A stretch of DNA of 64,000 nt from Escherichia phage vB_EcoM_E9.1. Positions within the stretch are counted from its first letter, which is position 1. Every line of letters begins with the position of its first letter. The stretch lies in sequence record PP886230; one strand, written 5' to 3'. This document shows, one piece after another, positions 11,339 to 54,576 of this stretch. The position numbers and the translations under genes were made by a program. The notes under the pieces are model-generated. The model did no database searches, was not told the origin of the DNA, and saw only the letters and a program-made list of their open reading frames with translations.

Positions 11339-11760
11339 GAGGCTATAATAAGATTTGTATTTTTGTATTTTTAGTTTGTGCATTCAATTCGTTTGGTTAC
11401 TACTGTACAGAAAATAATATTTCATATGGTTTAAATCCTTTGTGGTTTACAATTTCCAATGTAGCACAAATTGGTATTGCTCTTATGTCTGCACTTATGT
11501 TCTGTCCAATTGTCACTATGGATACTGATCATGAAAGGCTTGGATTTCTCCGTGATACTGGAGACGAACCTTACAGTAGATTGATTGTGTTGTATCCATT
11601 TATTGTTATTTTAGGTACTAACATCCAACTTGGGTCATTATCTAATAGTGTTACATCAGCAGCTATTGCTATATTTGCATTCACATTTTTTATGGTACAC
11701 AAATCAGTACTTAATTGGTATATCACAAAAATGGCAGAAGAAGGTACTAAAAATACTTGA
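11335..11760 (+). CDS. multi-pass membrane protein
   Basis: ORF 141 aa; hydrophobic; ATGA overlap with previous. Confidence 0.55.
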   Translation: MRGYNKICIFVFLVCAFNSFGYYCTENNISYGLNPLWFTISNVAQIGIALMSALMFCPIVTMDTDHERLGFLRDTGDEPYSRLIVLYPFIVILGTNIQLGSLSNSVTSAAIAIFAFTFFMVHKSVLNWYITKMAEEGTKNT

Positions 11761-11785
11761 CATAATTTAGTATGTTATATATAAT
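11757..11785 (+). promoter_or_regulatory. sigma70-type promoter
   Basis: TTGACA, 17-nt spacer, TATAAT; the TGA stop of the upstream ORF lies inside the -35 hexamer. Confidence 0.6.
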
Positions 11786-12077: not shown

Positions 12078-12106
12078 TTGACATAACAAATAATATGGAG
12101 TACAAT
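12078..12106 (+). promoter_or_regulatory. sigma70-type promoter
   Basis: TTGACA, 17-nt spacer, TACAAT. Confidence 0.55.
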
Positions 12107-12145: not shown

Positions 12146-12406
12146 ATGAAATCTATTCTCGTTGCAGTTAACCTGGTTGCTTCCCCATCTTTCAACTTCA
12201 AACAAGTTGTTGCTGATAATCTGAAGAAGATCTGTCCAAACGCTGAATTAACTTTCTGTGTGTTTGATTCAGAAAAAGTAACTAAAGTTGATCTAAACTA
12301 TCTTTTGAACGAAGTAAAAAGCGTTTCTGGTGAAAGTAACTTAAAAGTTCTTCATGATATTGCAGAAGATTATGATGACACTCTAGTAATTTCGGAGAAA
12401 TTCTAA
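12146..12406 (+). CDS. hypothetical protein
   Basis: ORF 86 aa. Confidence 0.55.
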   Translation: MKSILVAVNLVASPSFNFKQVVADNLKKICPNAELTFCVFDSEKVTKVDLNYLLNEVKSVSGESNLKVLHDIAEDYDDTLVISEKF

Positions 12407-12411
12407 ATCAA

Positions 12412-12831
12412 ATGATTACATTCATTCAGTACTTAATCATTAAATTTTTTGGCTATTATACGATTGAAGGCAAAGCTACACTCGCACATAAAATCTTTGT
12501 AGCATTATGTACGGGTGATTATGACGTATTGAATAAGTACTGTAAATCGCAAGCATGTATTGATATAATGGCACTTCGTATCTATGAGTGCCAGTTCAAT
12601 AGATATAATTTTTACCAGTACAGATTTGATAAAGAAGAATTTGATAGCATCAAAATGCTAAAGAATTTATGTAACAATAAAAAGAATATGCATATATCAG
12701 AATTTGTTGCTTTGTATTTTTATTTAAAAAGTTCATTGTATATGAACACGATGCAAAGATTCGATACTAGAATTAATGTATTCACCGATAAAGAATTTTA
12801 TATATACGATAAATTCTTAGATAAGGTTTAA
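12412..12831 (+). CDS. hypothetical protein
   Basis: ORF 139 aa. Confidence 0.5.
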   Translation: MITFIQYLIIKFFGYYTIEGKATLAHKIFVALCTGDYDVLNKYCKSQACIDIMALRIYECQFNRYNFYQYRFDKEEFDSIKMLKNLCNNKKNMHISEFVALYFYLKSSLYMNTMQRFDTRINVFTDKEFYIYDKFLDKV

Positions 12832-12832
12832 T

Positions 12833-13330
12833 ATGACAACTGTTTATATTGATAAACGATTAAATTTATTGATTACCGATTCTAGAGTTACGTCAACTAT
12901 ACCACGAAACTTATTTGGTTTTTTCCCACTAAGACCAAAATATCAATATGGAGTTGTTAATCAAAAAACTTTATATGTACATGACCGTTTATTCAGTGCT
13001 AGTGGGGTAGTAAGTGAAATTGATAAAGTACTGGATTGGTTAATTAATAAAGTACCAGTTATACCTGACAGAAAGTTAAGTTGCCATTGTGTGCTTCTTT
13101 CTAAAGATTATGTTATTCATATGATTTTAACTAAAGGAAAGTTTATTAAAAAACTTGAATATCTACATGAAGACTACACTTTCTTTATGGGAAGTGGTGG
13201 TGAATACATGCTAGATGCTGCTATTCATGAAGAACATACAACTTTATATGATAAAGTGTTTAGTACTTTCATGGATGTGCACAACCATGATTGCTTCACA
13301 GATGATAATATTAATGTATATCGATTTTGA
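12833..13330 (+). CDS. hypothetical protein
   Basis: ORF 165 aa. Confidence 0.55.
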   Translation: MTTVYIDKRLNLLITDSRVTSTIPRNLFGFFPLRPKYQYGVVNQKTLYVHDRLFSASGVVSEIDKVLDWLINKVPVIPDRKLSCHCVLLSKDYVIHMILTKGKFIKKLEYLHEDYTFFMGSGGEYMLDAAIHEEHTTLYDKVFSTFMDVHNHDCFTDDNINVYRF

Positions 13331-13351
13331 TTTCGTCATTAGGAGATGTAA

Positions 13352-14317
13352 GTGAAAAAGCTTGATTTAAATACAATTGCCGAAGAAGTTCTGGATGAAT
13401 GTTTTGCTAATGAAGAAGTCAACACACTAGAAGCCTTAGATTTCGTTGAAGATAAAGATGATAATGAAGGTAAAGTACAAAGCAGTTTCAAATATAATAT
13501 TACACTTAAGCGACCACCAAATGTTTCCAATGAAGATCTAATTCGTGATATTCAAGCTGGTATCAATGTAAAGAAAAACACTGAACTGTTAGTTCGTTAC
13601 AATTATGGACTGATTATTGATGTAGCAAGTAAATGTACTTGTTATATCCCATTTGAAGATAAGATTTCATATGGTGTTGAGGGGTTCATGAGAGCACTAA
13701 AAACCTTTGATCTTAATAAGAATGTTAAGTTCATTACCTATGCTTCTTCTAGTATTTACATGACAGTCTATAACGAAAGTTCTGACGCTAACTATATGGT
13801 ACACTTCCCACGTTATATGAGTGTTCATAAGATCAAAGTAAAAAGATTCTGCCAGGAATATATGCGTAAACATGGTGTTCGCCCAACACCTGAAATAATC
13901 TCAGAGGGTACTGGGATTGAGATTCAGCATGTTAATAATTGTTTGTTATTTCAAAGCGAATACACTTCGCTGGATGCACCATTAGACGGTGTTACAGATG
14001 GTACATTAGGTGACATTATTCATTCACCTGCTTCTGATTTTAACCTCAATGTTGATAGTATCCGTGCACCTTTGCGTTATGCTATCAATGAACTGACCAA
14101 CGAATTGAGTACTAAAGAACGTGAGATTATCCAGCGTGTTCATGGTCTAGGTGAATATGAACCTGAAACGCTTCGTGAGATTGCTGATAATGGTTTTGTT
14201 GATGATAATGGAAAATATGTTAAATCCCGTTCATCAATACATCGAAAGTACAGTGAAGCTATGCAAAAGCTTAAGAAGTTAGTACTTGCAAAAGGGTACG
14301 AATACGAAGATTTCTAA
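13352..14317 (+). CDS. phage-encoded sigma-70-family RNA polymerase sigma factor
   Basis: ORF 321 aa (GTG start after AGGAGA). Region-2-like segments (VRYNYGLIIDVASKC; FITYASSSIYMTVYN..FPRYM, compare RpoD FSTYATWWIRQ..RIPVHM) and a region-4-like HTH (LSTKEREIIQRVHGLGEYEPETLREIAD..SRSSIHRKYSEAMQKLKKL). Confidence 0.75.
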   Translation: MKKLDLNTIAEEVLDECFANEEVNTLEALDFVEDKDDNEGKVQSSFKYNITLKRPPNVSNEDLIRDIQAGINVKKNTELLVRYNYGLIIDVASKCTCYIPFEDKISYGVEGFMRALKTFDLNKNVKFITYASSSIYMTVYNESSDANYMVHFPRYMSVHKIKVKRFCQEYMRKHGVRPTPEIISEGTGIEIQHVNNCLLFQSEYTSLDAPLDGVTDGTLGDIIHSPASDFNLNVDSIRAPLRYAINELTNELSTKEREIIQRVHGLGEYEPETLREIADNGFVDDNGKYVKSRSSIHRKYSEAMQKLKKLVLAKGYEYEDF

Positions 14318-14325
14318 AGAACAAG

Positions 14326-14350
14326 GGTTGGCTTATGCCAACCTTTTTTT
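14326..14350 (+). terminator. intrinsic terminator
   Basis: Hairpin GGTTGGC-TTAT-GCCAACC followed by T7, directly after the sigma gene stop. Confidence 0.75.
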
Positions 14351-14874
14351 ATGGGATGAAGTAAAAGTTTGTGATATAATTATCTTGTACAATTCTGTTG
14401 GCATGATATTCATGTACCTGATCCACTCGAAAACGTAGAGGGCAGTTGAGCAGTCCGACAGTGCGAACAGCAAAAGAAACCCGTTAGATGTGGGCATAGT
14501 TTGAACCCCTCACGGCAATGCGGCTGTATAAAGAACCACGTTAGGATAGCTGGTGGTTCCTTGATAGACATATAAGGATAACACCTTACGAATTATCTAA
14601 GGGAGAGTTATCGAATTTTGTACAGGAAAGTTGCGTCCAAAATTTGAGTACTCACATTAAGTATTTGATTGCATAGATACTTAATGAAGATACACTATGT
14701 TTAAAAGTGTAGACCGTCATATGAAACTGAAGTAGAGAGAAACAGGATGACCCGCTTTCGCACTCTTTATGAGTAATCTTCAATGCAATAGCTCTGATAC
14801 CATCAGCGTCAAATTTCCCTCCTTGTGGGGGGAAGAAAAATCCCTTCCTCAAATCCCGTCAATATTAAAAGTCC

Positions 14875-14903
14875 TTGACAGTTATTAATCATTCGCGTAG
14901 AAT
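14875..14903 (+). promoter_or_regulatory. sigma70-type promoter
   Basis: TTGACA, 17-nt spacer, TAGAAT. Confidence 0.5.
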
Positions 14904-15405: not shown

Positions 15406-16194
15406 ATGAGCACTATAGATGAACTGATTCGACGGAATTCAAAATATTACCAACCATCAGAAATTGTAGGTAACATTACCAAATCAGAGTTTGGTCCAAA
15501 TACTCGAAAACTCATTCATGTAATGTCACGTGATGGCTTTAAATGTGATTGTTGCGGTGAATCTAATGTAGTATTCACTTTACACAAGCACAGTACTAAA
15601 GATCGTTATAAATTCAGACCTTATGTACTTAAAGGGAAACGCCTTGTACGCATGACGTTAGACCATAATGTACTGGACTGTCTTCAGGGCGGTAATGATA
15701 AAGAGAACATGACTGCACTGTGTGAAGATTGTAACGCATTACGCCAGCATAAGTTTGCTGAATACAGTGAGTTTAAACACTGGTATCATAACGCGGATCG
15801 TTCAATCGAGCCTGACGTTAACTACTGCTTCATTGAGTACATTAAGAATGCCAAAGATACATACATTCTTAAATCAATGTCACCTATTACCGTGTTTCCT
15901 GAGAACCTATTCACTACATTAAAGAATAGTTTTATTGTGGGTGATATTGATGCATTCAAGTATTTTGACAAAGGTGCAAAACATTTTGAAATTCAATGTC
16001 TTAGTACTGCACTATGTGAACTCATTAAAATTTACATAAAAGAGTATTTGGGTATTGACAATGTACGTGTACCAGAGTATACTTTTTCTATTGAATTCGA
16101 TTGTGAATCAATCAAAGAGTTTGGAATTCTTTTCAATAAACAAATAGAACTTGCAATTCAAAACGAAATCAAGTACTATACTACTAACATTTAA
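15406..16194 (+). CDS. HNH endonuclease
   Basis: ORF 262 aa; CDCCGE..LDHNVLDCLQGGNDKENMTALCEDCNALRQH matches the HNH His-Asn-His/zinc-knuckle signature. Confidence 0.7.
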   Translation: MSTIDELIRRNSKYYQPSEIVGNITKSEFGPNTRKLIHVMSRDGFKCDCCGESNVVFTLHKHSTKDRYKFRPYVLKGKRLVRMTLDHNVLDCLQGGNDKENMTALCEDCNALRQHKFAEYSEFKHWYHNADRSIEPDVNYCFIEYIKNAKDTYILKSMSPITVFPENLFTTLKNSFIVGDIDAFKYFDKGAKHFEIQCLSTALCELIKIYIKEYLGIDNVRVPEYTFSIEFDCESIKEFGILFNKQIELAIQNEIKYYTTNI

Positions 16195-16699: not shown

Positions 16700-16727
16700 T
16701 TGACATAAGATATCAGTACTGTATAAT
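16700..16727 (+). promoter_or_regulatory. sigma70-type promoter with CAGTACTG in spacer
   Basis: TTGACA, 16-nt spacer ending in CAGTACTG, TATAAT, then GTTTATATC. Confidence 0.65.
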
Positions 16728-22599: not shown

Positions 22600-22791
22600 A
22601 TGTTGATTTATCAAAGTGATAATATTCGTGTTATGCAGCATCCCTACTTACAAATCTTTGATGTGCAGCAGTATATGGAAGGTGATGACCCAAGAACCTA
22701 TGGTCGTAAGTATGATTACTTCACTGTAAAGCAGTGTAAAAATATTAACGAAGTACGACAATTAGTTCAAGAACTTCAAAACAAAGGTTGA
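22600..22791 (+). CDS. hypothetical protein
   Basis: ORF ~63 aa; ATG 22600 after AAGGA; TGA stop lies inside the TTGACT of the downstream module. Confidence 0.5.
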   Translation: MLIYQSDNIRVMQHPYLQIFDVQQYMEGDDPRTYGRKYDYFTVKQCKNINEVRQLVQELQNKG

Positions 22792-25521: not shown

Positions 25522-25636
25522 TTTAACTTTGGGACAACCATTCTTATTATGATATAATGTTTTATGTCATTCGATATAAATGACAACGGAACTATAAATA
25601 TTATAGTAAAATTTATCTCTTATAGGAGTTATAAAA

Positions 25637-26020
25637 ATGGTTGATAAATGGAATAAGAAAGATCCATCACATGATGTTGATATTTCTGGTCTAGACAATG
25701 CACATAAGCACAAGTATCTAGATTCACTAGGTCTTCTAAAACCAGACCAAAGTCTTGCACATGATCGTCCATCCCGTGAAAAAGCATTTAGCCTAGAATC
25801 ACTAGGTCATGAGCTTAATCGTGTGTTTGAGGATCACCCAATCTATGTACGTGATATTATCGAGAAACTTAAAGTAACTCCTAAAGAGCACTTTAAAGCA
25901 ACTGTACACTCTGCATTCCGTGCATTACATGAATCTCTAAAGAAAACTCACAATCTTCGTAAAATTCATGATGAAATCGTGAATGCAATCGAAAGTGAAA
26001 AACATAAGTTCAAGAAGTAA
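25637..26020 (+). CDS. hypothetical helical protein; domain paralogous to N-terminal part of 26266 ORF
   Basis: ORF 127 aa; LDSLGLLKP..IIEKLKVTPKEHFKATVHSAF resembles VNSLGLLNA..IVKELQSVPKEELKVKAQAVL in the 425-aa ORF. Confidence 0.6.
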   Translation: MVDKWNKKDPSHDVDISGLDNAHKHKYLDSLGLLKPDQSLAHDRPSREKAFSLESLGHELNRVFEDHPIYVRDIIEKLKVTPKEHFKATVHSAFRALHESLKKTHNLRKIHDEIVNAIESEKHKFKK

Positions 26021-48616: not shown

Positions 48617-49756
48617 TTATTTCCACGGTAGAAGTGAATCAGGAACCCTTGTTGGTACAGTAGTTGAAGACATTCCAGTAAGATTGGGTACACCACATGT
48701 GTATAAATTATTATATTCGTCAACTAACATCGTATAAGAATAGCTCTTACAAAAACTACTAAGATTACTACCTTCTAATGCAGTAAGATCCATTTCAGCG
48801 AATGATGTTATATACATATCAGTTGTACCAATACCACATTGACCATTTGAATTAAGGCCACATGAAAATAACTTATTATTATTATTAATTATACAGGATG
48901 GTCCGGTAAGGTTTGTCCCAAGCTCACCCACCAACTCCACTTCTCCTTGGAATGATAAATTTGGAATTAATGTACTCATTGGGGCTACTGACCTATTTCC
49001 TGTACCTGCTTGTCCATAGTCGTTAATAGATGCAACTTTAACATTACCATCATTAAGAAATATATAAGAAGTTTCATTTGTATTGACTGCTTTAATTGCA
49101 TTACTAATCGAAGTATCTTGTGTAAATGTGAGCAAGTTTTGTGTCGTCGTTCCTGATACAAACGTTCTACCTGCATACCAATATGAACCATCATTTAGTA
49201 CTAATCCAGTACTATATATTGCACAACCAGCACTGATAACATTTTCTATTGTACTATAGGTGAATCGTGAAACGCTTGAAGTTGATCCATTCCCAAAAAC
49301 ACCACCAGTACCAGCACCACAGTAGAACCACTTTCCATTTTTTAAAAATACACGCATACACGAAGATATCACAACACTATCAATATCATCTGCACTGACA
49401 CCGAAATCAGTAAAGTTCTGTGTTATATCAACCCAAACGCCGTTAGTGTTTGAAGATAGTATTGGAATAACAGTACGTCTACCAGTGTACCAAATAGTAC
49501 CATCTTTCTTTATAGCAATTGTTCCTTGTACCCCACCCCAATATCGTGTAACATTTGAGTTGACAAGAGTCCATTCAGTTGAAGAGTCCAATGAACCATT
49601 ACCACTTTGTCCATATGCTGAAGAACCAAACCAATATAGATTGCCATTTGTGTGTAAATAAAATTTGGCATCAGCAGAACATTGTAACCTGTTTTTAGGT
49701 AGAATCAGTTCAGGTGCGATATTCCCGTACTTAACCATTCTTGCAAAAGGTAACAT
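48617..49756 (-). CDS. RCC1-like repeat protein, array member 5
   Basis: ~380 aa from MLPFARMVKYGNIAP (track start 49918 runs through the control element); motifs YGQSGNGS, NGQCGIGT, YGQAGTGN. Confidence 0.8.
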   Translation of the reverse strand: MLPFARMVKYGNIAPELILPKNRLQCSADAKFYLHTNGNLYWFGSSAYGQSGNGSLDSSTEWTLVNSNVTRYWGGVQGTIAIKKDGTIWYTGRRTVIPILSSNTNGVWVDITQNFTDFGVSADDIDSVVISSCMRVFLKNGKWFYCGAGTGGVFGNGSTSSVSRFTYSTIENVISAGCAIYSTGLVLNDGSYWYAGRTFVSGTTTQNLLTFTQDTSISNAIKAVNTNETSYIFLNDGNVKVASINDYGQAGTGNRSVAPMSTLIPNLSFQGEVELVGELGTNLTGPSCIINNNNKLFSCGLNSNGQCGIGTTDMYITSFAEMDLTALEGSNLSSFCKSYSYTMLVDEYNNLYTCGVPNLTGMSSTTVPTRVPDSLLPWK

Positions 49757-49826
49757 ATTCCCTCCTTTATTTGTTATACTATATTTAATACAAATAAGAA
49801 AGCCAGTACAGTGTACTGGCATTATG
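49757..49826 (-). promoter_or_regulatory. array control element
   Basis: Near-identical copy. Confidence 0.6.
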
Positions 49827-50936
49827 TTATTTTGGTAAATCAATTTTAGTAAAGACTGCAACATCCTCGATTGCACCTGGAATGGCGTAATACGATCCAG
49901 TACTATACACATCTCCATTTTTGGTTAATATCGATGTCAAACCATCACTAAAAAGAACATCCCTAATCTCACTAACTTCAACGGGTAATTGTAAATTGGT
50001 AGCACTATATATAGCACCAGTTTGAGAATTGTTTAATCCCAAACCACGGTTCGCCCCAACACCCTTCTGATATGTACTAGTAATTACCATTTGTGTAGCA
50101 GTATTTAAGGCAGGTGAATTCGTCATAAACAATGGAGAACTATTAGGCAAAGTACTTACAGGAACTGCACGGAATGTAGTCGTACCTGAACTAAGAAAGT
50201 TTGGAGTTTGACCACATACGAAATATGATGTACCATTATAGTAATTTAATGCATTACCACCAATGGCTGCATCGATTACACCAGAACTACGCAATCCCCA
50301 AGTGTTAATTTGTGTTTGGTTCCCCGTACCATGCTGCCCACTACTATTCCATCCAGAACTATATAGCTTATTATCTAATGTAAGATACATACTATCATTC
50401 GCATTGGTCATTACTTTACGAACGTTCGTAGCACATTGAGTTAATGTGTAAATTGATGAGGAACCAATACCCAAAGAACCACGATATCCATTATCTCCTG
50501 CACCATAGAGTACTGAATTAGTGCTAAGTACAAATATTAAACCATTTGTACATACAATATTAGCAATTTCACTTACTGGTATAGCATTGGTAAACCAATT
50601 AGTTCTTTCAACTAATACAGTACTGTAAGAAGTAGTTGTAGAAGATGAGAACCAGTACGTTTGACCTGATGTCCATATCGTATTATCATTTTTAATAATA
50701 ACAAGTGTACGATCACCCACGAAAAAATTAGAAACATCTGCACTTACTAATGTCCACGAAGACACCGTGTTGGTATTACCATTTCCAGATTCACCACCTT
50801 GATTTCTACCTATGTAATATAAATCATGTGAATCAGTCAATAAGAATTGGCCTTGGGTAGAAGCACCAACTTTAATTATTTTTTTAGGACCAGGGACAAT
50901 ATTTCCATACCTAATCATTCTTCCAAAAGGTAACAT
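49827..50936 (-). CDS. RCC1-like repeat protein, array member 4
   Basis: ~370 aa from MLPFGRMIRYGNIVP; motifs GGESGNGN, SGQHGTGN; start 8 nt after upstream stop, with AGGAGG inside the end of the upstream gene. Confidence 0.75.
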   Translation of the reverse strand: MLPFGRMIRYGNIVPGPKKIIKVGASTQGQFLLTDSHDLYYIGRNQGGESGNGNTNTVSSWTLVSADVSNFFVGDRTLVIIKNDNTIWTSGQTYWFSSSTTTSYSTVLVERTNWFTNAIPVSEIANIVCTNGLIFVLSTNSVLYGAGDNGYRGSLGIGSSSIYTLTQCATNVRKVMTNANDSMYLTLDNKLYSSGWNSSGQHGTGNQTQINTWGLRSSGVIDAAIGGNALNYYNGTSYFVCGQTPNFLSSGTTTFRAVPVSTLPNSSPLFMTNSPALNTATQMVITSTYQKGVGANRGLGLNNSQTGAIYSATNLQLPVEVSEIRDVLFSDGLTSILTKNGDVYSTGSYYAIPGAIEDVAVFTKIDLPK

Positions 50937-50944
50937 ATTCCCTC

Positions 50945-52147
50945 CTATTGTTGCCATAACTGCGTTGGCATTAATGTTAGTGTAGTAATACTATAAGTGC
51001 CATCTGGCAATCTACCACCATTTCCATTCCAGCCACCACATGCATATAATTTATAATCTTTAGTAATTATTATGGTTCTGCTCCAATCTTTAGATGCCAT
51101 AAGAACATTGTCATAACCACCACTTATTGCACTAAGATTAAAAATATTCCAAGTTCTAACTAATGTATTAGTTCCATTACCTTCTTGACCATATGAGTTA
51201 GCACCACTACTTCTAACATATGGTGCGTATTGTGCCATAGGTGCACCAATTGATGCATTTCCCATATTACTTGGACAAATAAAAGTACTGTACTTACTTA
51301 CATCAACCGTGACCGATGTGTTCCTAATTGGTGTTAGCTGATTTACCGATGTAGTCGTACCATTACCAGCTTGTCCAGAACTGTTAGCCCCGCTATAATA
51401 TACAGACCCACCAGTAGTAAACCACCAAGTAACATCGTATGTAGTACTAATATGTTCTACATTACTAATCACGAATTTGTTCAAATATACAACAGAACTA
51501 CCACCACATCCACTTTCACCAAAGTTATCCTTACCACAAAACCATGCATCTTTATTTGATTTGATATAGTGCGTTCCTTGTAATGAACATGCCATATGTG
51601 TAACTTCACCCATATTAGTCATAACTGTGAGTGTAGGGATGGAATTTTTATTCCCAGAGCCACATTCACCATTAGTATTTCTTCCACACGCAATTACTCT
51701 ACCATCGGTTAATAATATTCTAGTACTTTCACCTATATATACACTCTTGATCATATTAGCCATAACACCTATTTTATTAAATGCAACAGTAACATCAGTC
51801 CATGTTGTCAAATAACCATTAACAGGTGTTGCATCTCCATAATCAGAAAATGCACCCACAGACCCAGTGTAGTATATTTTATTATCCAAATCAATCATCA
51901 ATGAACCTTGAACACCAAGCCAAAAGGCTGCACAGTTCCTTGCAAGTACTGTAAATGACGAAACTGCTGCTGAATTCCCAAGACCAAATTGATAAAAGTT
52001 ATTACTACCATAACCATATAAAGTATTAGTTGGGTTATGGAGATACATACAGTTTGTATAATGTTGTTGTAAAACATCTGAGAACTCTACAGGTTCTGGA
52101 CCTGGTGCAATATTTGCGTACTTAACCATTCTTCCAAAAGGTAACAT
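50945..52147 (-). CDS. RCC1-like repeat protein, array member 3
   Basis: 400 aa; leader MLPFGRMVKYANIAP; motifs FYQFGLGNS, NGECGSGN, SGQAGNGT, YGQEGNGT. Confidence 0.8.
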   Translation of the reverse strand: MLPFGRMVKYANIAPGPEPVEFSDVLQQHYTNCMYLHNPTNTLYGYGSNNFYQFGLGNSAAVSSFTVLARNCAAFWLGVQGSLMIDLDNKIYYTGSVGAFSDYGDATPVNGYLTTWTDVTVAFNKIGVMANMIKSVYIGESTRILLTDGRVIACGRNTNGECGSGNKNSIPTLTVMTNMGEVTHMACSLQGTHYIKSNKDAWFCGKDNFGESGCGGSSVVYLNKFVISNVEHISTTYDVTWWFTTGGSVYYSGANSSGQAGNGTTTSVNQLTPIRNTSVTVDVSKYSTFICPSNMGNASIGAPMAQYAPYVRSSGANSYGQEGNGTNTLVRTWNIFNLSAISGGYDNVLMASKDWSRTIIITKDYKLYACGGWNGNGGRLPDGTYSITTLTLMPTQLWQQ

Positions 52148-52218
52148 ATTTCCCTCCTTTATTCATTATACTATATTTAATACAAAAAGAAATGCCAGTA
52201 TCAAGTACTGGCATAATA
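52148..52218 (-). promoter_or_regulatory. array control element
   Basis: Near-identical copy. Confidence 0.6.
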
Positions 52219-53397
52219 TTATCGGTTAAATTTAAAATCTGTTATGTGTGTCCATGTATGATTTAATGGGGTACTCATTGGTGTAAAGCCAGCAGGGTCT
52301 GACAAAGCTGTACCACGTGCGTACATAAATTGATTGCCAGTACAATCCATTATAGCATAAGAACGTGTTGCTGTGCCACATTTGAACCCAACTGCACTAC
52401 TTGGGGTCGGTAATACTTCAAATGTAGGTGCATTTGAACTACCACCCCCATCTTTTGTTCCAGCTATGTACAGAACTCCATTAGTATCAATGATTAAGTT
52501 AGTCCAATATGCTTGTTCTCGACCAGCATAAAAATATGTTAAATCACCGGGTACAAATGGTAACGTTCCTTTATATATTGTAGTATTAACATTCACTGGT
52601 GCACCAGCTACACCCCATGAACTCATATAGTTTCTCCCACTTGAGTAGAATGTAGTTCCTTTACCGTAAAGTATTAATGTTGCTTGACTTGTTCGCATTG
52701 CATTATATTCAAACTCAGGATCATCAGTAGCGTCCTTAAAAATCTGTGTCCATGTTGTTATATTACCAGTAGTCGTAACACCCATTTGATAATAATAATT
52801 ATCACCAGTAGCATAGAATTCTTTAGGGCCAGTTTGTACAATTGCATTCCCATTAGTTAACCAAAAATCTAATGTATTAGTCTTGATCTTGGTTGGTGTG
52901 TAATTCGCCACGGTATTTCCTTTTCCGAAATAACCATTAGCGTTATTTCCATGACCCCATAAATCACCATTAGTTGTGCGTAGGAATAATGTACCAGTAT
53001 TGAATCCAACTTTTTCTATAGTACTTATGTCAATACCAACAGTCGTGTACTTCGTTGTAAAATCTTGAAAAGTACTCCAATAATTAGATGAACCATTAAA
53101 CATGGTTTGTCTACCAGTGTACTTCACTTTATTATCGTTAGTGATAAGTAATGTCCCCCACACTGACGCGAACATTAACTTAACATTTTCCATAACAAAG
53201 TATGGCTTACCGTATGCTGACGCGGTAGTGTTTAAACCTAATAGTTGTCCATCATTACTACAACCCCATACTTCGCCGTTATCCAAAAGCATCAACATAG
53301 TAGGTTTGCCGGATGATACATCCAAAAAGAAATCTTTTGGTGTTGGTACGCCCGGTGCTTCATTTCCATAATTCAACATTCTTCCAAAAGGTAACAT
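52219..53397 (-). CDS. RCC1-like (divergent) repeat protein, array member 2
   Basis: 392 aa; leader MLPFGRMLNYGNEAP; weaker repeat motifs (ANGYFGKGN). Confidence 0.7.
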   Translation of the reverse strand: MLPFGRMLNYGNEAPGVPTPKDFFLDVSSGKPTMLMLLDNGEVWGCSNDGQLLGLNTTASAYGKPYFVMENVKLMFASVWGTLLITNDNKVKYTGRQTMFNGSSNYWSTFQDFTTKYTTVGIDISTIEKVGFNTGTLFLRTTNGDLWGHGNNANGYFGKGNTVANYTPTKIKTNTLDFWLTNGNAIVQTGPKEFYATGDNYYYQMGVTTTGNITTWTQIFKDATDDPEFEYNAMRTSQATLILYGKGTTFYSSGRNYMSSWGVAGAPVNVNTTIYKGTLPFVPGDLTYFYAGREQAYWTNLIIDTNGVLYIAGTKDGGGSSNAPTFEVLPTPSSAVGFKCGTATRSYAIMDCTGNQFMYARGTALSDPAGFTPMSTPLNHTWTHITDFKFNR

Positions 53398-53466
53398 AGT
53401 TCCTCCTTTATCATTATACTATATTTAATACAAATAAGAAAGCCAGTATCAAGTACTGGCATCGTA
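53398..53466 (-). promoter_or_regulatory. array control element
   Basis: Near-identical copy. Confidence 0.6.
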
Positions 53467-54576
53467 TTACTTGGGTAATGGAATTGTGGTCCATCTATTT
53501 GCGGCAACGTCACCTGGTACATATGTAGGACTACCACTTACAGCAATAGTTTCATTACCATCATATACAACACTGAAGTTTGTGCACGTATACAACGCTG
53601 CGGCATCTGGATTGTAATTTTCAAGTGTTAGTGTATTGGTGAACAAATTCAATGCAGTAGTTGAGCCGTTTTTACCATATGCACCTGTAGTATATATCTT
53701 TCCTTCTGTTGTTGAGTACATATTAACATATGACCCAGATGATGATTTAGCAATTTTATCTATCTTGCTATCTATTGTTTTAGAGTTAAATTGAAATGGA
53801 TATACCTGTACGTTAGTATCTAAACCATTTCCCAGTTCCCCATTTAACTGCCACCCTGTGTGGTACATTCCCGCATTTGTATATGCAAGCGTACTATACG
53901 CATTACCACCCATTATTTTAGTGCCAGATAATTTTAAACCAAACGATGTCCACTTACCAGTTTCATTTCCTATGGAACCATAAGCACTTGTACCACACGC
54001 ACGAAGCTCGCCATTTGACGTTAGAAGCACTGTATTATTAACGTTACCAAATATATCAATAACCTGATTAGTGCCATTATTCAGTACTGAAGTAAAAGTA
54101 CTCTGTGAGTAAGTACTACCTGAACCAACAGAACCATTTGTGTTCATACCTCTTCCATATACAATTTTACCATCAGCACTAACATAGTGCATTGAATCAA
54201 AACCAATGGATATCATTTTAATATCAGATATATCTGGAAATGAAGAAGTTACATCTACTCCACCTAGTGGAATTGTATTATTTCCTAAACCTAATGAGAC
54301 ATTAGTTCCGTGCATTATAAATTTATCTTCTTTAAAATATAAAATATTATATCCACCAGCCCATGCATTATTAACGCCATTTGTAATCAGTACCCATTTA
54401 TTTTGTGTAGTAGTTCCAGTAATATTTAACTGTTGATAGTTATTGATTCCACAACCATATAGCGATCCATCACCATATAGTACATATAAATTATCATATC
54501 CTGCAATAACTTTCTTTATTTTTTTGGGTACAGGTGCTACATTCCCATACTTTAACATTCTTCCAAAAGGTAACAT
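53467..54576 (-). CDS. RCC1-like repeat protein, array member 1
   Basis: 369 aa; leader MLPFGRMLKYGNVAP; motifs NGSVGSGS, NGELGNGL. Confidence 0.75.
   Translation of the reverse strand: MLPFGRMLKYGNVAPVPKKIKKVIAGYDNLYVLYGDGSLYGCGINNYQQLNITGTTTQNKWVLITNGVNNAWAGGYNILYFKEDKFIMHGTNVSLGLGNNTIPLGGVDVTSSFPDISDIKMISIGFDSMHYVSADGKIVYGRGMNTNGSVGSGSTYSQSTFTSVLNNGTNQVIDIFGNVNNTVLLTSNGELRACGTSAYGSIGNETGKWTSFGLKLSGTKIMGGNAYSTLAYTNAGMYHTGWQLNGELGNGLDTNVQVYPFQFNSKTIDSKIDKIAKSSSGSYVNMYSTTEGKIYTTGAYGKNGSTTALNLFTNTLTLENYNPDAAALYTCTNFSVVYDGNETIAVSGSPTYVPGDVAANRWTTIPLPK

Follow-up and report, generated by a model that had tools for sequence, protein, structure and literature searches.

A sigma-70-family protein of a jumbo coliphage and a promoter class that it may recognise

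Escherichia phage vB_EcoM_E9.1 (sequence record PP886230) encodes its own sigma factor, and the question raised by that gene is which promoters its product would recognise. The stretch of DNA that we analysed (64,000 nucleotides (nt), hereafter 'the window') belongs to an Asteriusvirus, a jumbo coliphage of the PBECO4/121Q type with a genome of ~350 kb, and the gene occupies positions 13352 to 14317 of its plus strand. At the nucleotide level it is 99.8% identical to its counterpart in phage JP4 and 98–99.7% identical to those of PBECO4, 121Q, phAPEC6 and Sharanji. The identification of the protein as a sigma factor adds nothing new, because it is already known from GenBank annotation (the JP4 gene and most records of close relatives read 'RNA polymerase sigma factor', and the orthologues in PBECO4, 121Q, RaK2 and CBB also carry sigma-factor annotations) and from several genome papers in which the gene is named. 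Those papers on related phages suggest the same genomic role, but end at domain annotation and assign no promoter class to the protein. What is new here is a proposed set of targets, termed class 3, with the consensus tG(G/A)GACAa-N16-TG(A/C)TATAAT. We put the probability that the phage sigma directs transcription from these promoters at roughly 55%.

The gene and the parts of its product are as follows:

13352..14317, plus strand: sigma-70-family gene, 321 amino acids (aa), an open reading frame (ORF) with orthologues PBECO4 gp356, 121Q gp167, RaK2 ORF244 and CBB_513
13341..13345, plus strand: Shine-Dalgarno sequence AGGAG, six bases 5' of the GTG of the sigma gene
13352..13405, plus strand: N-terminal motif MKKLDLNxIxEEVLDECF, codons 1–18, recognisable down to 33–35% overall identity
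13586..13792, plus strand: sigma region 2, ~aa 79–147 (HMMER alignment to RpoD 7ye1_F; family alignments)
13811..14029, plus strand: sigma region 3, ~aa 154–226 (PF04539 above gathering score; RpoD alignment)
14072..14293, plus strand: sigma region 4, ~aa 241–314 (Pfam, rpoS model, AlphaFold2, family alignments)

The GTG start codon is fixed by the sequence MKKLDLN, which forms the N-terminus of all twelve sigma homologues that were aligned (46–85% identity). Identity within the gene family is 99% among asteriusviruses and 33–47% across genera.

The protein belongs to the sigma-70 family, where it falls in a phage-specific clade (PHROG 351); it has regions 2, 3 and 4 and is predicted to bind core RNA polymerase (RNAP) and initiate transcription. 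Among the Pfam models, Sigma70_r3 (PF04539) matched residues 162–226 with an E-value of 2e-9 (37.8 bits, cut-off 25.3), Sigma70_r2 (PF04542) matched at 7e-5 (23.0 bits, 1 bit under the gathering score of 24), and Sigma70_r4 (PF04545) reached 23.8 bits against a cut-off of 24.1. The last of these alignments, residues 251–279, covers only the first half of the model, because an inserted beta-hairpin interrupts the match. The NCBIfam superfamily model TIGR02937 was passed (44.7 bits, cut-off 42.9), the RpoD_Cterm model aligned to residues 79–283 (E 6e-25), and the rpoS model alignment reached residue 319. PHROG 351, 'RNA polymerase sigma factor' (E 2e-60), was the sole PHROG matched. Sequence matches in the PDB were to RpoD, SigA, SigB and RpoS (RpoD, SigA and RpoS at E 7e-17 to 1e-11), and regions 2.1 to 4.2 are collinear with those of cellular group-2 sigmas and the C-terminal part of RpoD, as is region 2 with RpoD region 2 in the alignment to 7ye1_F. 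An AlphaFold2 model built from 46 sequences has a mean predicted local distance difference test score (pLDDT) of 73.5, with confident domain cores that include the region 4 helices 254–264, 274–280 and 293–314 (pLDDT 86–91); residues 1–6 and 14–48 (pLDDT below 50) and the linker between regions 3 and 4 are disordered. Foldseek matched this model to sigmaS and sigmaA in RNAP initiation complexes (E 8e-11). A first-pass annotation of the locus had proposed a protein of the sigma-70 family, much larger than T4 gp55, in which regions 2 and 4 can be recognised. Both points hold, at 321 aa and with region 3 present as well, and profile searches, in which an assignment to some non-sigma family would have spoken to the contrary, returned sigma families.

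The same searches place the phage sigma outside the RpoD and RpoS equivalogs, and it is not gp55-like. Curated equivalog or subfamily cut-offs were missed by wide amounts (88 versus 354 bits for RpoD_Cterm, 70 versus 379 for rpoS_proteo, 73 versus 385 for a cyanobacterial RpoD-like model), and the SigB cut-off was also missed. Region 1.2 (PF00140), which the cellular matches have, gave no match in the phage clade, the window protein included; the best explanation is that the phage sigma carries a vestigial region 1.2.

Individual residues are compared below in the numbering of E. coli sigma-70, mapped onto the phage protein through the HMMER alignment. In region 2 the equivalents of N383, D403, G408, F419, K426, F427 and Y430 are retained, and the residues of the −11A pocket (F119, D120, K123 and Y130 of the phage protein) are conserved across the family together with those of the recognition helix. 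Several other positions have changed. The W433/W434 dyad is S133/S134 in the phage sigma and TT, AA or TS in its relatives; Q437 is replaced by M and T440 by Y; H455 and E458 of region 3 have become Y155 and V158; and region 2.2 carries the substitutions Q406 to S, E407 to Y and N409 to V. In region 4.2 a conserved beta-hairpin of ~10 residues (GFVDDNGKYVK) is inserted ahead of the recognition helix KSRSSIHRKY, in which the equivalent of R584 is retained (R293), E585 and R586 are both replaced by S, R588 by H297 and Q589 by R298. After the N-terminal motif comes an acidic, variable linker (aa 19–50), disordered in the AlphaFold2 model, and after region 4 a conserved acidic tail, YEYEDF. Across the clade, the C-terminus encoded by codons 315–321 (14294–14314) remains acidic down to 33–35% overall identity. 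Neither the N-terminal motif nor the acidic tail has an equivalent in cellular sigmas; RNAP, or a partner from phage or host, may dock there.

Promoter motifs were surveyed in 412 kb of DNA, comprising six PBECO4 segments and the window, with crude gene calls and a measure of word enrichment in intergenic sequence. Three promoter classes are present: host sigma-70-type promoters (class 1, TTGACA), class 3, and a class marked by TAAATA that is described further below. The hexamer G(G/A)GACA occurred 122 times in the survey DNA. TATAAT followed it at a distance of exactly 16 nt in 15 cases and 17 nt in three, and at every other spacing from 8 to 29 nt at most once; thirty simulated genomes contained a mean of 0.3 copies of the 16-nt arrangement that was observed 15 times. 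When the first two bases of NNGACA were left free at spacings of 16 or 17 nt, the leading dinucleotide was TT in 28 cases, GG in 12, GA in six and TG in three, with all others seen no more than once. Because these counts concentrate in TT versus GG or GA, they describe two discrete types of −35 element. The dinucleotide TG is found at −15/−14 in 15 of 18 class-3 sites, versus three of 27 class-1 sites.

Class-3 sites lie 5' of ssb (two in tandem), of the genes for topoisomerase II, primase and an exonuclease, of gp513 (itself upstream of the DNA polymerase gene) and of gp530, which encodes a gp55-like sigma. They also precede all four paralogues of a structured RNA, described below. Sites of this type in the window include the following, the first being its only canonical example:

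25531..25558, plus strand: GGGACA-N16-(TGA)TATAAT, 78 nt before gene 25637..26020, which encodes a virion structural protein (PHROG 16530)
14353..14380, plus strand: degenerate class-3 promoter GGGATG-N16-TGATATAAT, pointing into an ORF-free stretch

The argument that connects this promoter class to the phage sigma comes from a comparison of phage lineages, for which hexamers were taken from orthologous intergenic regions. The hexamer and the recognition helix of the sigma change jointly:

PBECO4: −35-like hexamer G(G/A)GACA; helix KSRSSIHRKY
Ecwhy_1: hexamers GGGACG, GAGACA and GGAACA; helix TARSSLHRKY
RaK2: hexamer TGAAC(A/G); helix TVRGTLHYKF
CBB: hexamer G(A/G)AAC(G/A/T); helix TSKATLSRRY
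Xanthomonas phages: hexamer GAAAC(G/A) (XaC1); helix TSKATLSRRY (XbC2)

In RaK2, Y replaces R298 of the helix and T replaces G at the first position of the hexamer. CBB and the Xanthomonas phages, which have different hosts, share both helix and hexamer. The sigma-70 of the hosts is essentially invariant; since the hexamer varies between phage lineages, it must be read by a phage protein. The spacing of 16 bp, together with the GACA half that the hexamer shares with TTGACA, fits a sigma region 4 in its usual position. Phages of the PA5oct type provide the converse case: an ssb homologue is present (11 records), no homologue of the candidate class-3 sigma was detectable, and the ssb gene of PA5oct is preceded by a perfect TTGACA-N17-TATAAT. 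From the joint change of helix and hexamer, and from this profile in PA5oct, we infer a link between the phage sigma and class 3.

A related set of promoters has been described for phage CBB, where 'divergent RpoD-like' promoters with a −35 element TGAAACG precede DNA-synthesis genes and the gp55-like gene, with no factor assigned to them (PMC5259590). The CBB-type −35 element TGAAAC was considered in PBECO4 and set aside: 13 of its 348 occurrences are intergenic, so that it is not enriched, and the Asteriusvirus equivalent is G(G/A)GACA.

Several observations weigh against the assignment of class 3 to the phage sigma. Literature searches turned up no transcriptomic, binding or biochemical work on any sigma of an Asteriusvirus or Rak2-like phage. 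The pairs of helix and hexamer span four or five lineages and do not correspond one-to-one: the promoters of XaC1 had to be paired with the sigma of XbC2, another phage, and RaK2 retains H297 yet has A at the third position of its hexamer. The window's own RNA copy has only the degenerate −35 element GGGATG. The remaining points are also those from which the strongest rival explanation draws, namely that host sigma-70 serves class 3 through an extended −10 element, that a phage activator reads G(G/A)GACA, and that the phage sigma has other targets. The class-3 −10 sequence, TGnTATAAT, is a textbook extended −10 element of host sigma-70, and the phage sigma has replaced the residues that would be called upon at such a site (the TG readers H455 and E458, the −12 readers Q437 and T440, and the melting dyad W433/W434). 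Middle promoters of T4 look alike, pairing a good −10 element with a replaced −35 element, but use host sigma-70 together with MotA and AsiA.

We nevertheless regard that explanation as unlikely. The distance of the hexamer is canonical for a −35 element, nearly always with a 16-bp spacer, and not that of the MotA box at −30; its GACA half is common to TTGACA, and the phage sigma retains the equivalent of R584. Hexamer and sigma recognition helix also vary together between lineages, and PA5oct, which has no such sigma, carries a TTGACA promoter before ssb. The PBECO4 annotation tables, read outside 150–180 kb, list no anti-sigma factor or MotA, and a tblastn search of the PBECO4 segments and the window with T4 AsiA (a weak test, made with an unvalidated query) returned nothing below E 0.8.

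A second alternative, that the protein is a decoy, would have a sigma-like competitor bind core RNAP or a partner by way of its N-terminal helix and acidic tail and shut off the host without initiating transcription. The loss of the tryptophan dyad, the three changes in region 2.2 and the strong conservation of the N-terminal motif and C-terminal tail would all suit such a function. Set against them, all three DNA-facing domains are retained with confidently predicted cores, the −11A pocket and the recognition helix are conserved in the family, group-3 sigmas also lack the tryptophan dyad yet are functional, and a matching orphan promoter class is present. We consider a decoy very improbable.

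The first-pass annotation had named other targets, namely the AT-rich boxes in front of the genes of a repeated array in the window, and this proposal did not stand. With up to three mismatches allowed, seven copies of the box given there, GTATTAAATATAGTATAATGAATAAAGGAGG, are present where none is expected by chance, always on the minus strand:

44046..52183, minus strand: seven array boxes, TAAATA-TAGTATAATG...AGGAGG, each after the terminator of the preceding RCC1-like paralogue

These boxes precede RCC1-like beta-propeller paralogues of about 380–400 aa, and each starts directly after the hairpin and T-run of the terminator of the upstream gene. The −35 position holds TTCTTA or TTTCTT, and for this reason we see no bipartite promoter there. 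What the boxes do contain is a motif shared with other genes. ATAAATA is 24-fold enriched in intergenic DNA of the survey, and TAAATA, often followed by (G)TATA as in the array box, lies 25–50 nt 5' of the start codons of genes for the major head protein, scaffold, tail sheath, tail tube, tail fibre and baseplate. Two examples are:

tail fibre gene gp515: TAAATA TAGTATATAT
tail tube gene gp020: TAAATA AAGTATAATG

This class resembles the late promoter of T4, TATAAATA, and PBECO4 gp530 is a gp55-like 'sigma factor for late transcription' (PHROG 12791 at 3e-154, PHROG 234 at 8e-18). By analogy with T4, the TAAATA class would belong to this gp55-like late sigma; since the array boxes share the motif with structural genes and the phage encodes such a sigma, they are best read as late promoters of this other factor. 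The virion proteome of phAPEC6 includes two 40–41 kDa 'DNA condensation' proteins, and eleven RCC1-like genes were noted in the same work (PMC7247149). The two virion proteins are presumably members of the array, an identity that would fit late expression of the RCC1-like proteins. That the phage sigma recognises the array boxes, or TAAATA promoters generally, is thus highly improbable: the boxes are well conserved and contain a perfect TATAAT, but their −35 position falls within the T-run of the upstream terminator with a hexamer that matches neither TTGACA nor G(G/A)GACA, and the motif is that of head, tail and baseplate genes.

The array itself comprises eleven paralogous genes of about 250–430 aa on the minus strand (41687–54576), starting MLPFGRMVKYGN, most of them with their own terminator and TAAATA-type promoter. 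Two of the paralogues were scanned and both match RCC1-like beta-propeller families; one paralogue is glycine-rich.

The setting of the sigma gene is that of host sigma-70-type promoters:

11757..11785, plus strand: host-type promoter TTGACA-N17-TATAAT (12/12), ahead of the gene run whose last member is the sigma gene
12078..12106, plus strand: host-type promoter TTGACA-N17-TACAAT (11/12), immediately 5' of four packed genes (12146..14317)
12146..13330, plus strand: three ORFs of 86, 139 and 165 aa that probably share a transcript with the sigma gene
14323..14346, plus strand: intrinsic terminator AAGGGTTGGC-TTAT-GCCAACCTTT followed by seven T residues, six bases past the sigma stop codon

The sigma gene is the last of the four-gene run, in which successive genes are separated by 5, 1 and 21 nt. 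Its three neighbours fall into PHROGs 26969, 37211 and 24804, all of 'unknown function'; a Pfam scan of the three gave no match and the PHROG scan no informative family. Sigma-70-like sites that score at least 11/12 number 24 on the plus strand of the window and four on its minus strand, with sigma-70 consensus promoters densely set along the plus strand from ~1.6 to 40 kb, and the CBB orthologue of the sigma gene is likewise behind a perfect TTGACA-N17-TATAAT. At the level of sequence, then, the first-pass placement of the gene in an early region, followed by a strong terminator, agrees with these promoters and with the 10-bp terminator stem (five G-C pairs) and its T-run. The further suggestion that the terminator imposes tight dosage control is speculation. 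The terminator also lies between the sigma operon and a gene for a non-coding RNA, which has a promoter of its own.

That RNA gene lies in an ORF-free stretch of 530 nt after the terminator, within which the conserved element measures ~430–510 nt:

14417..14862 (element 14353–14880), plus strand: core of a structured non-coding RNA copy, one of four paralogues and a putative class-3 transcript
~94196–93640, ~38547–37960 and ~305442–304900 of PBECO4, minus strand: the three other copies

Each Asteriusvirus genome has four paralogous copies; in related genera of jumbo phages, a single record matches at as many as five places. The three PBECO4 copies listed above stand behind a canonical G(G/A)GACA-N16-TATAAT at the equivalent position. 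The stretch is 90.9% identical in Ecwhy_1, versus 68% for the sigma gene. A pattern scan of IMG/VR found 27 further homologues from related jumbo phages; homologues are present at the loci that we number L014 (4501–4931), L030, L050 and L053 and at 20 other IMG/VR loci. Aligned copies stand behind the class-3 promoter of their lineage, and most end in a hairpin and T-run. The evidence for structure is covariation in the alignment (RNAalifold predicted 75 pairs from 23 copies, 50 of them with compensatory double changes and long-range helices included), and not the folding of single sequences, which was uninformative (z = −1.59). Searches of Rfam 15, at the gathering threshold and at E-values up to 1, found no family in the window stretch or in four further loci (three of 121Q, one of fHe-Yen9-04), and we found no paper on this structured RNA in the literature. 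The element probably represents a new large structured RNA family.

The same layout is seen in RaK2 (our locus L012, 2425–2766), where the sigma gene is followed by a class-3 promoter of the lineage's own type, TGAACA-N16-TGATATAAT, and by a 340-nt ORF-free stretch whose alignment to the RNA family is confined to the 5' half of the latter. In the window, ~550 nt separate the structured RNA from a downstream gene for an HNH endonuclease (PHROG 35175; 15406–16194, plus strand), which has a TTGACA-N17-TAGAAT promoter of its own at 14875.

Three other repeated elements were observed in the window. A module of the form AAAGGGTTGACTTCGGTCAGCCCTTTTT(G)nTATAAT is found on the plus strand at 22788, 32904, 34186 and 36444 and in the regions of 26090, 26290 and 28675. 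Its −35 element, TTGACT, lies within a terminator-like hairpin stem and the T-run serves as the spacer to TATAAT, so the module reads as a joint terminator and putative promoter between early genes. An early cassette with more than 15 repeats (61384–63920, plus strand; PBECO4 132–150 kb, minus strand) consists in order of AAAAAGTACTTGCAA-N16-TATAATGTTTTACAT, a leader hairpin (GAGAGGGGGAA...TTCTCCC) and a small ORF, and resembles a series of early genes duplicated in tandem, with TTGCAA as a variant −35 element and an A-tract upstream. Its promoter (window 61–64 kb, PBECO4 132–150 kb) had been a candidate for a class read by the phage sigma; we judged it to be a variant of the sigma-70 type and not a separate class, because of its TTGCAA, its upstream A-tract, its perfect −10 element and its place in duplicated small-ORF early cassettes. 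The palindrome AGTACT, often as CAGTACTG, is found immediately 5' of TATAAT in the spacers of promoters, as well as in the stems of terminators (for example at 16700, 21014, 31343 and 60110 on the plus strand, and in the array terminators at 44–53 kb on the minus strand), by impression far more commonly than expected. A phage methylase or regulator might act on it, or it could be a plain repeat family.

Taken together, these observations suggest a cascade of three steps, in which core binding, timing and the use of class 3 are inferred. Host sigma-70 holoenzyme would transcribe the sigma gene early, from the TTGACA-N17-TA(T/C)AAT promoters, as the last gene of its four-gene operon. The phage sigma would then bind host core RNAP and direct it to class-3 promoters, where the −35 hexamer, altered in sequence but normally spaced at 16 bp, would be read by its diverged region 4.2 helix (R293, H297 and R298). 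Class 3 would in turn switch on ssb, primase, topoisomerase II, the exonuclease, the DNA polymerase region, the gp55-like sigma gene and the four structured-RNA genes, and the gp55-like sigma would finally serve the TAAATA late promoters, including those of the RCC1-like array. A broader form of this proposal, to which we give about even odds, is that the sigma represents the middle transcription programme of Rak2-like jumbo phages, with a lineage-specific −35 element that would be read through a region 4.2 bearing a beta-hairpin and with replication genes, the late sigma and four to five structured RNAs per genome under its control. If the sigma does read class 3, these 350-kb coliphages would drive the host polymerase through a succession of three sigmas, with a middle sigma in the style of SPO1 and a late sigma in the style of T4; the pairs of hexamer and helix would form a natural data set on the reading of DNA by region 4, and could be a source of orthogonal promoter/sigma pairs for E. 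coli. The structured RNA family may be the more interesting object at the sigma locus.

Among known systems, the best functional analogue is gp28 of the Bacillus phage SPO1 (cascade sigmaA, then gp28, then gp33/34), an early-made sigma for middle genes that include the late sigma. The likeness, which we propose on sequence grounds, would lie in early expression from host-sigma promoters and in a bipartite middle class that includes the late-sigma gene. The phage sigma differs from gp28 in its larger size, full region 3 and host-type TATAAT −10 element, and the late sigma here is like T4 gp55, not like gp33/34. Portal and capsid phylogeny relate these jumbo phages to T4 (PMC5259590), and they share with it a gp55-like gene and TAAATA late promoters, while class 3 resembles the middle promoters of T4 in its good extended −10 element and replaced −35 element. 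The window protein is itself distinct from gp55 in possessing regions 3 and 4, which gp55 lacks, and unlike gp530 it has no match to gp55 families. Class 3 also departs from the MotA/AsiA arrangement, in that the replaced element is at −35 with a 16-bp spacer and not at −30. In sequence and fold the best matches are cellular group-2 sigmas (RpoS, actinobacterial SigB and those of cyanobacteria) and the C-terminal part of RpoD, from which the phage sigma is set apart by the beta-hairpin in the helix-turn-helix of region 4.2, its unique N-terminal motif and its acidic C-terminal tail. Finally, gp36 of phiEco32 (Pavlova et al. 2012, as cited in PMC7318152) is another sigma encoded by a coliphage, and reportedly turns the core RNAP of E. 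coli towards middle and late promoters; it is a two-domain protein of the extracytoplasmic function (ECF) type, whereas the sigma encoded in the window has three domains and is closest to groups 1 and 2.

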